Below are positions 4,247-60,946 of a stretch of DNA of 64,000 nucleotides, piece by piece. The notes below the pieces were generated by a model, which saw nothing but the letters and a program-made list of their open reading frames with translations, had not been told where the DNA came from and ran no database searches. The position numbers and the translations under genes are program-made. Origin of the DNA: Spartobacteria bacterium. Its GTDB lineage: Bacteria > Verrucomicrobiota > Kiritimatiellia > RZYC01. Numbering within the stretch: position 1 is the first letter of the stretch; every line of letters starts with the position of its first letter. The stretch is taken from NCBI GenBank assembly GCA_009930475.1, contig RZYC01000007.1:6188-70187 (forward strand), read 5' to 3'.

Positions 4247-5209
4247 ATGAAACATCGAATTAAACAATCCCCCCTCGCCTACTACCATTGCATGAGCCGA
4301 ATTGTCGGTCGTCAAATGCTGCTGGGCGAAATAGAAAAAGAACACATGCACTCTCTGATCCGACGCATTGAAGGCTTCACAGGGGTGCGTGTTCTGACCT
4401 ATGCAATCATGACAAATCATGTGCATCTACTCCTTGAAGAGCCTGATAGAGATACGGTTATTTCGGACGAAGAATTCAACCGACGGATGACATTCCTTTA
4501 TTCGGAGGCGGAGTTGGTTGACTTGAAAGAGCGCTGGGCGATGTGGGATGCGGCCAGTGTCGAAGCCGACAAGAGACGCTATCTGGTGCGAATGCACGAT
4601 ATCAGTGAATTCATGAAGCAATTAAAGCAGCGATTTTCTCGCTGGTACAATCAAAGGAATCAGCGATCAGGTGCATTGTGGGATACACGGTTTAAAAGCG
4701 TATTAGTCCAACCGGGATTACCATTACGAACGGTTGCGGCGTACATTGAAATGAATCCTGTTCGGGCAGGCATGGAAAAAAGTCCCCACTTCTACCGCTA
4801 TTGCGGCTTTGGGGAAGCCATTGGCGGAAATTCAAAAGCACGCGAGGGCATTCGCCTGATCACTAAATCGATGGATACCACATTGCATACCTGGCATGAA
4901 GTGTCAGCCCATTATTTGGAACGGATTCTAATGTATGATGACGTACGAAAACACCCGGAACAGGCATGCACTGATCACGATTATCTGCGCAGCAAGCTTG
5001 GTAATAAACTGAAACTGACCGATTTCGAACGACTTCTGTGTCGATGCCGTTACTTTACAGATGGACGGATTATTGGCAGCCGCGCCTTTGTTGACGCATA
5101 TTTTGAGGAACACAGACATGATTTTGGAACCAGGCGAATTTGCGGTGCGCGAAAAATCAAAGGTGGCTGGGATGCTCTTTTTGCGATAAGGGAACTTGTC
5201 GACTGGTAA
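4247..5209 (+). CDS. RAYT-like Y1 (HUH) tyrosine transposase, copy 1 (320 aa)
   Basis: YYHCMSRIVGR, HUH motif YAIMTNHVHLLL, GALWDTRFKSVLV, catalytic-Tyr motif AAYIEMNPVRAG. Confidence 0.9.
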   Translation: MKHRIKQSPLAYYHCMSRIVGRQMLLGEIEKEHMHSLIRRIEGFTGVRVLTYAIMTNHVHLLLEEPDRDTVISDEEFNRRMTFLYSEAELVDLKERWAMWDAASVEADKRRYLVRMHDISEFMKQLKQRFSRWYNQRNQRSGALWDTRFKSVLVQPGLPLRTVAAYIEMNPVRAGMEKSPHFYRYCGFGEAIGGNSKAREGIRLITKSMDTTLHTWHEVSAHYLERILMYDDVRKHPEQACTDHDYLRSKLGNKLKLTDFERLLCRCRYFTDGRIIGSRAFVDAYFEEHRHDFGTRRICGARKIKGGWDALFAIRELVDW

Positions 5210-14200: not shown

Positions 14201-14287
14201 AAAAGTTCCAATCATTGGAACTTTTATTTTAAAAACGTCCAATCATTGGAACTTTTGTTTCAGAAAGTTCCAATCATCGGAACTTTT
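14201..14287. repeat. Tandem array of three 25-bp REP-like palindromes, 31-bp period (14201, 14232, 14263)
   Basis: AAAAGTTCCAATCATTGGAACTTTT / AAAACGTCCAATCATTGGAACTTTT / GAAAGTTCCAATCATCGGAACTTTT with 6-nt linkers ATTTTA and GTTTCA; 60 bp downstream of the RAYT copy 2 stop. Confidence 0.92.
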
Positions 14288-14347
14288 ATAAATAGCCCTT
14301 TTTCCACCAATTGGCAATATCCGTCGACAACGAATGAATCAAGCGGA

Positions 14348-15361
14348 TCAACACCAGTGCCCCAGATCACGAATCGTGTATAGATTCAGCCATCCCCCTC
14401 GCATTTTCCGTGCTCCCGTTTTTCGCGACGCGCTGAAATAATCCTGATTCTCGACAAAAAACGCCTCAACAAAGGCCTGCGACCCAAAAACCTGCCCATC
14501 TGAAAAATATCGATTTTTACATTGCAGCCGCTCAAAGTCCGAGATCTTCGTCCGGTGCCTAAGCTTATCCGGAATCATATCCCTATCCAACATCGCAAAA
14601 TGCGGATTTTTACGAACCTCATCATACATCAGAACACGTTCCCAATAAATGGATGACGCAGCACTCCACTCATGAATCTGCTCTTTCACCCGAACCGCAT
14701 CGTCCAGTGGTTCCACCCCTGACACCAACGTCATAATTCCTTTCCGCGCAGCATCTACGCCCCCCATGGCTTCACCCAAACCGCAAAACCGATACGTTTT
14801 TGGATCAGCCACGATACCCGCACGTACCGGATTCATTTCAATATACGAAGCCATCGTGCGCAAGGCCGCACCATCTTCCACCAGCACACTTTTAAAACGA
14901 TGTTCCCACAAGGTTCCGCACCGCCCCGTACGCCGATTATACCAGCAGGAAAACCGTTGCTTCACCTGCTTCATAAACTCGCTAATATCATGCATGCGTA
15001 TCAGATACCGATGCTTATCCTCTTCAACCAGCTCCGTCAACCCCGTCCATTCCCATTCCGCCCAGTGCTCCCGAATTTCATCTACCTCCGCTTCTGTATA
15101 TAAACAACGCAGCCGACGTAGCAGCTCGTCATCATCTATCGCATGCACCGCATCGCGATCCGGCTCCTCCAACAATAAGTGAACATGATTTGTCATCACC
15201 GCATAAGTTAGCACACGTACACCGGTAAAACCCTCCACTTTCCGGATTAATCGCCGCATGTGCTCTTTTTCGACATGGCCCATCAACATCGCTCGGCCCA
15301 CAATACGCGACATACAATGATAATAAGCCAGATGATCTCTTTTAATTCGTTTACGTCTCAT
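14348..15361 (-). CDS. RAYT-like Y1 (HUH) tyrosine transposase, copy 2 (337 aa, most divergent)
   Basis: YYHCMSRIVGR, YAVMTNHVHLLL, GTLWEHRFKSVLV, ASYIEMNPVRAG; start reassigned to ATG 15361 by homology and promoter geometry. Confidence 0.9.
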   Translation of the reverse strand: MRRKRIKRDHLAYYHCMSRIVGRAMLMGHVEKEHMRRLIRKVEGFTGVRVLTYAVMTNHVHLLLEEPDRDAVHAIDDDELLRRLRCLYTEAEVDEIREHWAEWEWTGLTELVEEDKHRYLIRMHDISEFMKQVKQRFSCWYNRRTGRCGTLWEHRFKSVLVEDGAALRTMASYIEMNPVRAGIVADPKTYRFCGLGEAMGGVDAARKGIMTLVSGVEPLDDAVRVKEQIHEWSAASSIYWERVLMYDEVRKNPHFAMLDRDMIPDKLRHRTKISDFERLQCKNRYFSDGQVFGSQAFVEAFFVENQDYFSASRKTGARKMRGGWLNLYTIRDLGHWC

Positions 15362-15428
15362 ACCGTCAAGATAAACACATGATTCGAGGTGTTGCAAGCA
15401 ATATAATATAGTAATAGTCTGGAGATAT
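15362..15428 (-). promoter_or_regulatory. Putative leaderless promoter of RAYT copy 2 with upstream 21-bp box
   Basis: Minus strand: ATATCTCCAGACTATTACTAT (15428-15408), N9, C, TTGCAA (15397-92), N18, TATCTT (15373-68), N6, ATG. Confidence 0.6.
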
Positions 15429-30572: not shown

Positions 30573-31535
30573 ATGAAAAACCGCATTAAACGTACGTCTT
30601 TAGCTTATTATCACTGCATGAGCCGAATTGTTGGCCGCCAGATGTTGCTGGGCACAAGTGAAAAAGAATATATGACGGCTCTGCTTCGCCGCATCGAAGG
30701 GTTTACCGGCGTGCGCATTCTGACCTATGCCCTTATGACCAACCACTTTCATCTGTTGCTGGAAGAACCTGATCGCGGTACGGTTATTTCCGATAGGGAA
30801 TTTCAGCGTCGAATGGCCTGCATTTATTCAATGGACGAACTAAATGAGCTGTATGAGCGATGGGCCTCGCTGGACGACGAAAGCACTGCCTTGGAAAAAC
30901 AGCGTTATCTGTCACGGATGCATGACATCAGCGAGTTTATGAAGCAAGTGAAACAACGGTTTTCCAGATGGTACAATCGGATGAATCATCGTTCGGGCAC
31001 GCTGTGGGATGCACGATTCAAGAGTGTACTGGTGGAGCCGGGCACACCGTTGCGAGTTGTTGCGGCCTATATTGAGATGAATCCCGTGCGGGCGGGAATG
31101 GAAACGGAGCCACACTTCTATCGCTACTGCGGTTTTGCCGAGGCGATGGGAGGCGGGTCAAAGGCGAGGGACGGCATCCGGACGATTGCCTCGTTCATGG
31201 ACACGGCCGCACCTGACTGGACGACCGTATCCGCGCACTACCTAGAACGCATTCTCATGTACGACGACGTGCGGAATCATCCGGAATGTGCCTGCACTGA
31301 TCATGATTATTTGCGAGAGAAACTGGGTCAAAAGTTGAAACTGACTGATTTCGAACGATTACTATGCCGCAGTCGCTATTTTATTGATGGACGTATCATC
31401 GGCAGCAAACAATTTGTTGAGCAGTTTTTTGTCGAACACAGGGATTATTTCGGGCAAAAACGAATTTCTGGAGCGCGAAAGATCAAGGGTGGCTGGACTG
31501 GGTTGTTTGCCATCAGAGACCTGGTGGACTGGTGA
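30573..31535 (+). CDS. RAYT-like Y1 (HUH) tyrosine transposase, copy 3 (320 aa)
   Basis: YYHCMSRIVGR, YALMTNHFHLLL, GTLWDARFKSVLV, AAYIEMNPVRAG; start ATG 30573 aligns with the other copies. Confidence 0.9.
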   Translation: MKNRIKRTSLAYYHCMSRIVGRQMLLGTSEKEYMTALLRRIEGFTGVRILTYALMTNHFHLLLEEPDRGTVISDREFQRRMACIYSMDELNELYERWASLDDESTALEKQRYLSRMHDISEFMKQVKQRFSRWYNRMNHRSGTLWDARFKSVLVEPGTPLRVVAAYIEMNPVRAGMETEPHFYRYCGFAEAMGGGSKARDGIRTIASFMDTAAPDWTTVSAHYLERILMYDDVRNHPECACTDHDYLREKLGQKLKLTDFERLLCRSRYFIDGRIIGSKQFVEQFFVEHRDYFGQKRISGARKIKGGWTGLFAIRDLVDW

Positions 31536-32662: not shown

Positions 32663-34093
32663 ATGAAAAAAACGAAAATTGTCTGCACCATCGGTCCGGC
32701 ATCGGAATCCGACGAAGTACTGGAACAACTCATTCTCGCCGGCATGAATGTGGCACGGCTCAATTTTTCTCATGGCGATCATGAGGAACACGGCATCCGC
32801 ATCACACGCATCCGTGCCATTGCCGACCGCCTAGGAAAACCCGTAGCCATCCTGCAAGACATTGCCGGCCCGAAAATACGCATTGGAACCATATCTAACG
32901 GACCGGTGATTCTCGAAAACGGAAAAGCATTTATTATTACATCGGATGACATCGACGGCAGTGCCGAGCGTGTCAGTGTAAACTACAAGAAGCTCCCCCA
33001 GCTCGTTCGTCCCGGGGATGTCCTGCTACTCAGTGACGGGATGCTGGAAATGGAAGTATCCCACACAACCGACACCGAAATTCACTGTCGCGTAACCAAC
33101 GGCGGACCACTCAGCTCACACAAAGGAGTCAATCTCCCTTCGCGCTCGACAGGTATCCCCATTTTGACTGCCAAAGACAAAAAAGACGTCATGTTCGGCA
33201 TCGAACAGGGTGTCGATTTTATGGCACTGTCCTTTGTACGAAATGCCAACGATATCCGGCAGGTACGCGCTCTTATCGAGATTCATGACAGCAGTATTCC
33301 ATTGATTGCAAAAATCGAGAAACCCGAAGCCTATGCGCACATAGACGAAATTGTGGAAGCGGCCGACGGCATCATGGTGGCTCGTGGTGATCTGGGCGTA
33401 GAACTCCCCTTTGAACAAGTCCCGCTGATTCAAAAAACAATCATCCGCAAAGCCAACAAAGCGTGCAAACCAGTTATTACGGCAACGCAGATGCTGGAAT
33501 CCATGGTATCCAGTCCCCGCCCCACCCGTGCAGAAGTTACGGATGTGGCCAACGCCATTCTGGACGGAACGGATGCTGTAATGTTGTCGGAAGAAAGTGC
33601 CATGGGGCAGTTCCCTGTACGCGCAGTACAAGCCATGGCCCGCATTGCTCAGGATGTGGAAAAACAATTTCCGGCGGATCACTGGCTCAACCGTTTTGAT
33701 AACGAAAATCGATACACCATCGAGCAGTCGGTCTCTCATGCCGCATGCGATATCGCCGAGCATATGGATGTCGCGGCCATCATCGCGGGCACAGAAACCG
33801 GATTCACCGCCCGTCAGGTATCCCGTCATCGCCCACATGCTCCCATTTTTGCAGTAACAACTGATAAACGAACCTACAACCAGCTGTCACTGGCATGGGG
33901 CGTCACACCGCTTATACTGCCTGATTACGAACAGACCGATGTCATGATCAGGTTATCCTTCGAGGCAGGCATCAAAAATAATATTTTGAAACATGGCGAT
34001 CAAGTCGTCGTGGTTGGCGGTATCCCGGCGAAAATGGCTGGCTGCACCAACTTCCTCGCTGTTGTAGAGGTGGGAAAAACCATTAAATATTAA
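32663..34093 (+). CDS. pyk: Pyruvate kinase
   Basis: KTKIVCTIGPAS, ARLNFSHG, DIAGPKIR, IAKIEK, DGIMVARGDLG, ATQMLESM, PTRAEVTDVANA, MLSEESA; start ATG 32663. Confidence 0.97.
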   Translation: MKKTKIVCTIGPASESDEVLEQLILAGMNVARLNFSHGDHEEHGIRITRIRAIADRLGKPVAILQDIAGPKIRIGTISNGPVILENGKAFIITSDDIDGSAERVSVNYKKLPQLVRPGDVLLLSDGMLEMEVSHTTDTEIHCRVTNGGPLSSHKGVNLPSRSTGIPILTAKDKKDVMFGIEQGVDFMALSFVRNANDIRQVRALIEIHDSSIPLIAKIEKPEAYAHIDEIVEAADGIMVARGDLGVELPFEQVPLIQKTIIRKANKACKPVITATQMLESMVSSPRPTRAEVTDVANAILDGTDAVMLSEESAMGQFPVRAVQAMARIAQDVEKQFPADHWLNRFDNENRYTIEQSVSHAACDIAEHMDVAAIIAGTETGFTARQVSRHRPHAPIFAVTTDKRTYNQLSLAWGVTPLILPDYEQTDVMIRLSFEAGIKNNILKHGDQVVVVGGIPAKMAGCTNFLAVVEVGKTIKY

Positions 34094-34107: not shown

Positions 34108-34165
34108 CGGAAAGTTCCAGACATTGGAACTTTCCGCCTGAAAAGTTCCAATGTCTGGAACTTTT
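34108..34165. repeat. Inverted doublet of 25-bp REP-like palindromes, 31-bp spacing (34110, 34141)
   Basis: CGGAAAGTTCCAGACATTGGAACTTTCCG then AAAAGTTCCAATGTCTGGAACTTTT; the two cores are exact reverse complements; between convergent genes. Confidence 0.9.
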
Positions 34166-34187: not shown

Positions 34188-35021
34188 TTACCAGCCTTCA
34201 TTTTTACGGCGGTCGTTCTGGTACTTCGTCATAGCTTCACGCACGTACTGCCGGAAGCGAATAGGATTAATCGGCTTGGTAATGACTCGAGCGGCACCGG
34301 CGTTCAGCATGTCCTGCGACATGTCATCATCGTGAAAGGCGGTGGTCACAAGAATCTGTACGGATGCATGCTGCTGCGCGTATTTTCTGATAAATTCACA
34401 GGGATCGTCAGTATTCAATCCCATGACTTCTACAATCAGGACACTGACATTTTCCACGGAATTTAAATCAATTTCATCGTTACAGGTAACGATTTCGACT
34501 TCTTCGGACGTCAGCAGTTTGGCAAAATAATCTAACGCGCGTTTTTCCGGATCCATAATAGCAATGGTCATATCCGTTTCTTCTTCAATGCTTAGCTTTC
34601 CAGTCAGCACGTCATGAACGCAACTACCCAGCATATTGAGATTTACCGGCTTATCCATACGGGCCAAAATGCCGTATTTTTTGTATTTCCGTTCATCCAG
34701 TCCGACTTCACTGCCGCTGGAAAGAAGAATCACCGGAACATTAGTCACCTGCATCACGTCCTTCATCAAATTTCGTGACCCCAGCAACTCGATCAGCAAC
34801 TGTTCCAGCGGCATATCCGCTAGCGGCGTGTCAATGATCAGCAGCTGACTCAAAAAATCCCGATCGGTTTCGATGGCCTCTTCGCCCTCCTCCGCAGTGT
34901 GCACATAGTACCCGCTGGATGAGAGAAACCGTTGAACTGTTAAACGAATCGAAGTTCGGCGGCTGACGATAAGAATGGGAAATAAATGTTTATCCTCGGC
35001 ACTTAAAGTATCACGGTCCAT
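34188..35021 (-). CDS. Tandem atypical receiver-domain protein (REC-REC, no output domain)
   Basis: Two CheY-like folds: ILIVSRR...LLIIDTPLAD...LLSS...MDKPV and IAIMDPE...VLIVEV...VTTA...ITKPI. Confidence 0.75.
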   Translation of the reverse strand: MDRDTLSAEDKHLFPILIVSRRTSIRLTVQRFLSSSGYYVHTAEEGEEAIETDRDFLSQLLIIDTPLADMPLEQLLIELLGSRNLMKDVMQVTNVPVILLSSGSEVGLDERKYKKYGILARMDKPVNLNMLGSCVHDVLTGKLSIEEETDMTIAIMDPEKRALDYFAKLLTSEEVEIVTCNDEIDLNSVENVSVLIVEVMGLNTDDPCEFIRKYAQQHASVQILVTTAFHDDDMSQDMLNAGAARVITKPINPIRFRQYVREAMTKYQNDRRKNEGW

Positions 35022-43878: not shown

Positions 43879-44841
43879 ATGAACCAACGAATAAAACACA
43901 GTCACTTAGCCTACTACCACTGCATGAGCCGCATCGTCGGCCGCGAAATGTTGCTTGGTAAAGCAGAAAAACAACACATGCATGCATTGATACGCCGTAT
44001 TGAAGGATTTACCGGCGTACGCGTATTAACCTATGCAATCATGACAAACCATGTACATCTGCTACTTGAGGAGCCTGATCGCAACACGGTGATCTCCGAT
44101 GAAGAATTTCGGCGGCGCATGAAGTACCTGTATACAGAAACTGAACTTTCGGAACTGTATGAAAGATGGGACATGTGGACACCGGAAAGCGTAGCCATGG
44201 ACATGCATCGCTACCTCATTCGCATGCACGATATCAGTGAATTCATGAAGCAATTAAAACAGCGGTTTTCTCGCTGGTACAACAAGCGTAATCAGCGGTC
44301 GGGAGCATTGTGGGATACGCGGTTTAAGAGCGTGCTGGTAGAGCCGGGGACTCCGCTTCGAACGGTGGCCGCATACATCGAGATGAATCCTGTACGGGCC
44401 GGCATGGAAAAAGAACCTCATTTCTATCCATTTTGCGGCTTTGCAGAAGCTATGGCGGGAGGTAGAAATGCGCAAACAGGGATACGCATTATTGCAGCAT
44501 CTATGGAGTCTGAATCACAGCATTGGGATGTTGTTTCTTCCCATTATTTCGAACGCATTCTGATGTACGACGAGGTACGTAATCACCCAAAACGAGCCCG
44601 CACAGACCACGATTATCTGCGGGAACAACTAGGCAAACGACTGGAACTAACCGATCATGAACGATTGCGATGCCGTAGTCGTTATTTCACGGACGGACGC
44701 ATCATCGGCAGCAAAGAATTTGTGGAGGAATACTTTCAAGAACACAAGCAGCACTTTGGATCAAAACGAACGTCCGGCGCACGAAAAGTCAAAGGCGGCT
44801 GGAATAATTTGTTTGCTCTGCGCGAGCTGATGGACTGGTAA
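43879..44841 (+). CDS. RAYT-like Y1 (HUH) tyrosine transposase, copy 4 (320 aa)
   Basis: YYHCMSRIVGR, YAIMTNHVHLLL, GALWDTRFKSVLV, AAYIEMNPVRAG. Confidence 0.9.
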   Translation: MNQRIKHSHLAYYHCMSRIVGREMLLGKAEKQHMHALIRRIEGFTGVRVLTYAIMTNHVHLLLEEPDRNTVISDEEFRRRMKYLYTETELSELYERWDMWTPESVAMDMHRYLIRMHDISEFMKQLKQRFSRWYNKRNQRSGALWDTRFKSVLVEPGTPLRTVAAYIEMNPVRAGMEKEPHFYPFCGFAEAMAGGRNAQTGIRIIAASMESESQHWDVVSSHYFERILMYDEVRNHPKRARTDHDYLREQLGKRLELTDHERLRCRSRYFTDGRIIGSKEFVEEYFQEHKQHFGSKRTSGARKVKGGWNNLFALRELMDW

Positions 44842-60921: not shown

Positions 60922-60946
60922 AAAAGTTCCAATGATTGGAACTTTT
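60922..60946. repeat. Single 25-bp REP-like palindrome
   Basis: AAAAGTTCCAATGATTGGAACTTTT (12-bp perfect arms) between the wza-like and wzc-like genes. Confidence 0.88.

Follow-up and report, generated by a model that had tools for sequence, protein, structure and literature searches.

The 64-kb stretch of DNA that was analyzed (here, the window) contains nine copies of a palindromic unit, AAAAGTTCCA-N5-TGGAACTTTT, which were identified by direct reading and by a pattern scan and which lie at four loci, all of them intergenic (Table 1). When GTTCCA-N5-TGGAAC was searched for with up to two mismatches, 10 matches were obtained in the window against 2.6 expected, a number reached in none of 100 shuffles. 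Two of the four loci are situated between convergent stop codons and two in co-directional gaps, and the genes adjoining the arrays are unrelated housekeeping genes. The ninth copy, a singleton, was absent from the list in the first-pass annotation of this DNA. The consensus of the unit is symmetric (AAAAG...CTTTT) and, apart from its central bases, a perfect palindrome, and all six of its frames are free of stop codons. In the window's organism, read depth suggests a genome-wide copy number of about 80 for the unit (summed contig depth, ~8400 versus ~100). The window also encodes four RAYT-like Y1 genes, one of which is a neighbor of array 2.

Table 1. Palindromic units, arrays, and RAYT-like genes in the window, with arrays of the same core motif from rumen MAGs
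Feature	Position	Units or core	Linkers	Setting or remarks
Array 1	745-831	745-769, 776-800, 807-831	GAAAAT, CCCAAA	Convergent gene ends: plus-strand ORF stop at 723, minus-strand ORF stop at 842
Array 2	14201-14287	14201-14225, 14232-14256, 14263-14287	ATTTTA, GTTTCA	60 bp 3' of RAYT-like ORF, 61 bp 5' of Opp-type permease ORF; both ORFs on the minus strand
Decayed fourth unit by array 2	14297-14321	Core TTCCACCAATTGGCA at 14302-14316		34 bp from unit 3, not 31
Array 3	34110-34165	34110-34134, 34141-34165	CGCCTG	Convergent gene ends: pyruvate-kinase-like stop at 34093, response-regulator-like stop at 34188
Single unit	60922-60946	AAAAGTTCCAATGATTGGAACTTTT		Between two co-directional minus-strand genes of a polysaccharide-export locus
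RAYT-like Y1 (HUH) paralog 1	4247-5209 (+)			Paralogs ~56-59% identical; HUH and Tyr motifs intact
RAYT-like Y1 (HUH) paralog 2	14348-15397 (-)			As for paralog 1
RAYT-like Y1 (HUH) paralog 3	30573-31535 (+)			As for paralog 1
RAYT-like Y1 (HUH) paralog 4	43879-44841 (+)			As for paralog 1
Prevotella/Bacteroidales arrays	L129:3292-3373, L143:2311-2392, L146:2999-3124, L151:1762-1840, L177:2900-2981, and others			

Within the three arrays of the window, all five start-to-start distances between neighboring units are exactly 31 bp, made up of the 25-bp unit and a 6-nt linker. Array 1 is partly degenerate, in the left arm of its unit 1 and the whole of its unit 3, and all three units of array 2 have the central sequence ATCAT. 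The decayed fourth unit beside array 2 is out of phase, having lost its sequence and its phase too. Adjacent units with exact reverse-complement, nonconsensus centers occur in array 3 (GACAT/ATGTC, 34110-34165) and in array 1 (GTCAT/ATGAC, 745-800). These mirror-image centers are exceptions and not family-wide, and they probably arose by local inverted copying or conversion via the palindromic arms. A strain ~98% identical to the window keeps both of the arrays that were inspected together with their spacing, the sole indel being located in an outer T-run at 34162. A CRISPR array was rejected as a candidate, the linkers being just 6 nt long.

Public collections were scanned with a gapped pattern in which the period could take any value between 17 and 47 bp. 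Matches to it were found mainly in Kiritimatiellia, Pontiellaceae, Tichowtungia, and "Verrucomicrobiota" MAGs, with fewer in rumen Prevotella/Bacteroidales MAGs; the broad pattern AGTTCCA-N5-TGGAACT gave mostly chance matches in unrelated phyla. Among cultured relatives, Pontiella sulfatireligans F21 (loci L144 and L234) and the Pontiellaceae isolates B1224 and B12219 have arrays of the same core motif, and a nearly identical unit is found both at 50% and at 58 to 60% genomic GC. No match to the unit was found in the viral contigs and plasmids scanned. The arrays are chromosomal and vertically inherited. In the rumen Prevotella/Bacteroidales MAGs, intergenic arrays consist of three to five GTTCCA-N5-TGGAAC units with an exact period of 21 or 22 bp (a distance of 44 bp being 2 x 22). 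Through these arrays, the core motif is represented beyond the PVC group as well; they lie between unrelated housekeeping genes, and clustering of the neighbor genes around them yielded no recurrent family.

Pooled across 48 genomes, 281 neighbor spacings comprise 29 at 21 to 22 bp, 212 at 30 to 33 bp, and 14 at 40 to 43 bp, with almost none between, and the best-fitting step is ~10 bp. Judged from these lengths, the three classes would correspond to about two, three, and four helical turns; this argument has just three spacing classes as its basis, and the 22-bp class may consist of abutting units that share a flank. The period is lineage-specific, being 31 bp in 40 of the 42 spacings of JBFXGK and in 34 of the 36 of JAKQHR and 32 bp in CAYYAR and CAIVKH, and the difference between 31 and 32 shows that the constraint is something other than one exact length. 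The window's exact unit is present at spacings of 41, 41, and 41 bp in one other genome, and the 22- and 31-bp classes can coexist within one array. The exact 31-bp period that the first-pass annotation had ascribed to all arrays holds for the window and for the subfamily of its unit; it does not extend to the whole family, in which periods of 32, 21 to 22, and 41 to 43 bp are also found, as is the 34 bp of the decayed core.

A single-unit anchor scan, in which one exact unit served as the query and which is unbiased for neighbors, was run over species-representative genomes and metagenome contigs. For 57 anchors in the former, the nearest neighbor was located at 31 bp in 32 cases, at 32 bp in 16, and at 41 to 42 bp in 5, with 4 anchors isolated; for 72 anchors in the latter, it was located at 31 bp in 55, at 32 bp in 3, at 30 bp in 1, and at 42 bp in 1, with 12 isolated. 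Combined, the nearest neighbor lies at 31 bp for 87 and at 32 bp for 19 of the 129 anchored units (106 of 129 at either distance), at 30 bp for 1, and at 41 to 42 bp for 6, and 16 units are isolated. The first pass had named a broad spacing distribution as the refutation of its claim; the distribution over these collection genomes and metagenomes is narrow. In the two 31-bp genomes that were sampled, arrays most often have three units, and one relative carries up to three arrays per 8 kb. At L285:2569-2610 (JAKQHR), an indolepyruvate-oxidoreductase-like ORF contains two look-alikes of the core, 24 bp apart, whose translation is VPVIGK...VPVIGE; here a coding sequence imitates the motif, there is no array, and the single off-class JAKQHR spacing is thereby explained. 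In the Kiritimatiellia lineage BF2_42, two loci (L192:587-770 and L163:3765-3950) consist of higher-order tandem repeats with spacings of 31-22-30-31-22-30 bp, and the half-sites of this lineage, TTTTCCACA and TGTGGATAA, resemble what we take to be DnaA boxes (TTWTNCACA).

A linker of fixed length and free sequence, as had been described for the window, proved to be general for the 31-bp subfamily. In JBFXGK, 39 of 40 linker hexamers are distinct, and linker positions carry 0.1 to 0.4 bit, against 1 to 2 bit within the unit (40 pairs in JBFXGK and 33 in JAKQHR). JBFXGK and JAKQHR are related species whose orthologous flanks are 75 to 85% identical, and the orthologous comparison comprised five arrays among the loci fetched from them, a small sample of 60 linker positions. 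The window's own flanking genes have only distant homologs among the fetched loci (38 to 47% amino acid identity), so that the ortholog test rests on these two species. Three units are present in both species at all five arrays. The units are identical at 332 of 375 positions (88.5%) and the linkers at 24 of 60 (40%), and no indels were found within the 5 x 87 bp of the orthologous arrays, with indels of up to 16 nt in the adjoining noncoding flanks. These comparisons indicate that the arrays are old and inherited, with constraint on unit sequence and linker length and with free linker sequence. The central C/G flips between orthologous units; the "orientation" of a unit is therefore a point difference only. 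The period had been said to hold regardless of unit orientation, and the spacing indeed holds, but orientation rests on 1 to 5 central bases and so says little. The first pass had also proposed a fixed-geometry insertion mechanism that adds units. The stability of the orthologous arrays, which keep the same three units in all five cases with conserved sequence and linker length, argues against such ongoing insertion, and it is not obvious what a length step of 10 bp would mean for a transposition mechanism that works on single strands.

By crude ORF calls, the median distance from an array to the flanking stop is 14 bp and that to the flanking start is 78 bp; convergent gaps are modestly enriched (28% versus 20% background). 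The crude ORF calling placed many arrays "inside ORFs." Of five such cases inspected, two proved to be junk frames; the others were an upstream extension of a real gene, a coding look-alike, and an array that was apparently intragenic. In this last case (L140:4469-4620, JBFXGK010000002.1), a five-unit 31-bp array is located inside one open 1700-codon frame that is protein-like on both sides, with RCC1-type repeats downstream, and may be genuinely intragenic. At L255:2227-2260, compared with L244 and L256, synteny between the two related genomes switches partner exactly at a three-unit array, which may be a rearrangement breakpoint.

The location of the arrays shortly after stop codons and in convergent gaps is consistent with an RNA-level element, in which tandem 3'-end hairpins would act as bidirectional terminators or mRNA stabilizers, an RNA-binding protein possibly setting the spacing. 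When folded, the consensus unit gives a hairpin of A4-stem-loop-T4 form (-8.9 kcal/mol), whose 11-bp stem is free of mismatches and whose loop is 3 nt long. The post-stop position and this A-tract/hairpin/T-tract shape count against a reading of the units as protein-binding sites, in that they may reflect an RNA or terminator role. However, in 291 units, Watson-Crick combinations occur as often as expected under independence at all seven variable symmetric pairs (observed versus expected counts include 176 versus 178, 126 versus 127 at pair 5/21, and 206 versus 213), and nonpairing combinations at pair 5/21 number 61 for G..G and 52 for C..C. G-T and A-C combinations are equally frequent, and therefore neither strand is favored; each central variant is also as frequent as its own reverse complement. 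By this measure the two halves of the unit vary independently, without compensatory changes, which argues against a selected hairpin. The stem and loop are conserved across species far beyond the needs of a terminator, and a 10-bp length quantum has no RNA rationale. The stem, which is AT-rich with three G-C pairs, also lacks the high G+C content of an intrinsic terminator, from which the unit differs further in its conserved sequence and its pairing without compensatory change. A terminator scan left the units unflagged, and no Rfam family was detected in the whole window at the gathering threshold. The metatranscriptome match was to a relative's fragment of a kinase gene alone, and Pontiella-linked RNA runs gave zero coverage of L144. 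The units can fold, but there is no sign that folding is selected, and we consider an RNA-level element unlikely. The array-derived small RNA that the first pass had offered as a further possibility is without support, given the Rfam result and the missing compensatory changes in the stem.

A second alternative is raised by the neighbor of array 2. The ORF at 14348-15397 matches Pfam Y1_Tnp (3e-11) and scores 63.5 bits against NCBIfam REP_Tyr_transpos, under the model cutoff of 80. Its proximity to the array and its intact HUH and Tyr motifs would fit REP/REPIN-type nonautonomous mobile elements spread by a Y1 (RAYT-like) transposase, with the period set by cutting geometry or by a multiunit replicative element. 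The repeats are, moreover, high-copy, intergenic, and hairpin-capable, their sharp next-neighbor peak is the classic REPIN signature (PMC3116915), and the mirror-image centers in two window arrays point in the same direction. Against this, palindromes are absent from the flanks of three of the four window paralogs, and the remaining one, paralog 2, has one on its 3' side only. Co-occurrence was looked at in sampled loci, which may miss classical RAYTs, these being single-copy, and RAYT relatives were scanned for with two peptide patterns. Leaving aside the RAYT loci themselves, neither tblastn nor a profile HMM built from the four paralogs found a Y1 ORF in any palindrome-bearing locus among 301 loci, no Y1 gene was found in ~2.8 Mb of palindrome-bearing loci, and tblastn of the RAYT paralogs against 71 metagenome palindrome loci gave no match. 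The palindrome motif was likewise absent from 16 loci encoding RAYT relatives (in Opitutales, Puniceicoccales, one Kiritimatiellia, and a few other MAGs), and a search for related loci with a single RAYT-like paralog found none. Because these tests of association are negative, the adjacency of array 2 and the RAYT-like ORF (14287/14348) is read as a coincidence, most simply of two things that both prefer intergenic DNA.

Upstream of each of the four paralogs lies an AT-rich region that is similar among them and has a CTTGA(C/T)-type hexamer at its end. A conserved segment of the RAYT-like gene (14551-14661) has a contig depth ~18x the genome depth, and the family therefore has many copies in this genome. 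In being multicopy and without flanking REPs, the window's RAYT-like genes resemble TIRYT/TIRtron Y1 genes (PMC3733652), and the four likely belong to this type of class; the likeness concerns the neighboring gene and not the palindromes.

The units themselves also differ from the substrates of such transposases. A conserved GTAG (or CGTC) tetranucleotide at one end is required in REP sequences with a RAYT (PMC3733652, PMC3333891), and E. coli TnpA-REP needs GTAG and a stem mismatch, perfection of the palindrome abolishing binding (PMC3333891). In contrast, the consensus of 291 units contains no GTAG or CGTC tag, and its stem is perfect and AT-rich. The palindromes share with the REP/BIME sequences of Enterobacteria and Pseudomonas (PMC3333891, PMC2817692, PMC3733652) that they are short, high-copy, extragenic, and regularly spaced in arrays, often just after genes or between convergent genes, and that they are chromosomal and lineage-wide. 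Unlike REP/BIME, they show no meaningful alternation of orientation, their 6-nt linkers are motif-free, no RAYT is flanked by them, no covariation is seen in the stem, and their spacing is quantised in helical turns. With REPINs (Bertels and Rainey 2011, PMC3116915), they have in common the sharp next-neighbor peak and an overrepresentation of doublets and clusters. REPIN peaks lie at 71 and 110 bp and stem from the copying of an inverted doublet with pairing arms (PMC3116915), whereas here the complementarity of neighboring units does not exceed chance (centers of adjacent units matched directly in 15 and in inverted form in 11 of 144 pairs, versus ~20 expected from shuffles), with arrays 1 and 3 of the window as exceptions. 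Linkers are not inherited between loci, and orthologous arrays are static. The family is therefore REP/BIME-like in distribution, and possibly in role, and is outside REP/RAYT and REPIN as these are defined; dispersal by a Y1 transposase seems to us rather improbable.

The arrays could also consist of protein-independent structural DNA. In the 31-bp subfamily, A/T tracts recur at multiples of ~10.5 bp (0, 21, 31, 52...), and such phased A4/T4 tracts would be curved or anisotropically flexible and could favor wrapping, for example by gyrase or a nucleoid protein. In E. coli, gyrase and IHF are known to act at BIMEs. That the flanks could act via intrinsic curvature without a specific protein counts against the protein-site reading. 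The invariant part of the unit, however, is TTCCA/TGGAA and not the A/T flanks, and in CAIVKH, a 32-bp genome, the flanks are low in information and the spacing is still fixed, so that we assign a low probability to this explanation. A neutral minisatellite, in which local tandem duplication of the 31-bp unit trivially preserves the period, draws on the perfect 31-bp or higher-order (63- and 83- to 84-bp) duplications of some genomes (L193, L152, L192) and on the 4 of 6 bases shared by the two linkers of array 2, but it is very improbable and as a general explanation is refuted by the orthologous-array comparison, in which units are conserved while linkers saturate, and by linkers essentially all different within and between arrays, with the same period at hundreds of unrelated loci in different genomes.

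The best-supported explanation, to which we give somewhat better than even chances on the strength of the comparative sequence data, is that the palindromes are arrays of protein-binding sites with dyad symmetry, which purifying selection keeps in helical register. Each 25-bp unit would be a dyad-symmetric double-stranded site for a dimeric DNA-binding protein, its half-sites one helical turn apart; the centers of the half-sites, TTCCA and TGGAA, are separated by 10 bp. Units would be kept at whole-turn center-to-center distances of ~2, 3, or 4 turns, and of 3 turns (31 bp) in this genome. Whole-turn spacing between units, together with the 10-bp distance within them, would bring every half-site of an array to roughly the same side of the helix, and bound dimers could contact one another or wrap 60 to 130 bp of DNA. 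Helically phased protein binding, which the first pass had listed among its possibilities, is favored by the ~10-bp quantised spacing, by the pattern of the linkers, and by the independence of the half-sites, while the binding protein itself is one that we infer. The mirror-image centers in two window arrays show that local inverted copying or conversion happens sometimes, and they are counted against this binding-site reading.

Several known systems are built in a similar way. As in operator- and iteron-like arrays, the site is a dyad whose half-sites, one turn apart, vary independently, the spacing is in whole turns, and the spacer sequence is free. SeqA on GATC pairs binds on the same face at several allowed spacings (PMC2691817), and the palindromes resemble these pairs, plasmid iterons, and phage operators in having several discrete spacings with irrelevant intervening sequence. 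Those sites, however, are confined to one or a few loci (origins and operators) or are 4-bp methylation sites, whereas the 25-bp palindrome described here is scattered over many gene ends. The occurrence of the arrays in short intergenic gaps, typically ~14 bp past a stop codon, suggests a REP/BIME-like host role at gene ends, where bound arrays could serve as a transcription boundary or roadblock, in supercoil management, or in nucleoid structuring.

Dispersed intergenic palindromes of the REP/BIME kind have been known for ~40 years, and it is still debated whether they are selfish or serve the host. With conserved units and conserved spacer length, free spacer sequence, no covariation, and no transposase, the family described here constitutes clean comparative evidence for host-level selection, and its spacing rule suggests that the DNA is recognized as a duplex, from one side of the helix. 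We tentatively propose, as a possibility more conjectural than binding-site arrays as such, that Kiritimatiellia-type bacteria, and perhaps rumen Prevotella/Bacteroidales, possess a hitherto undescribed genome-wide system in which a dedicated, sequence-specific protein would oligomerize on phased arrays at gene ends. Such arrays, a functional parallel to REP/BIME, would serve as boundary, roadblock, or topology elements that need no transposase and that host selection alone maintains. If the binding protein were found, it would define a new chromosome-organizing or transcription-boundary system in a poorly studied phylum.
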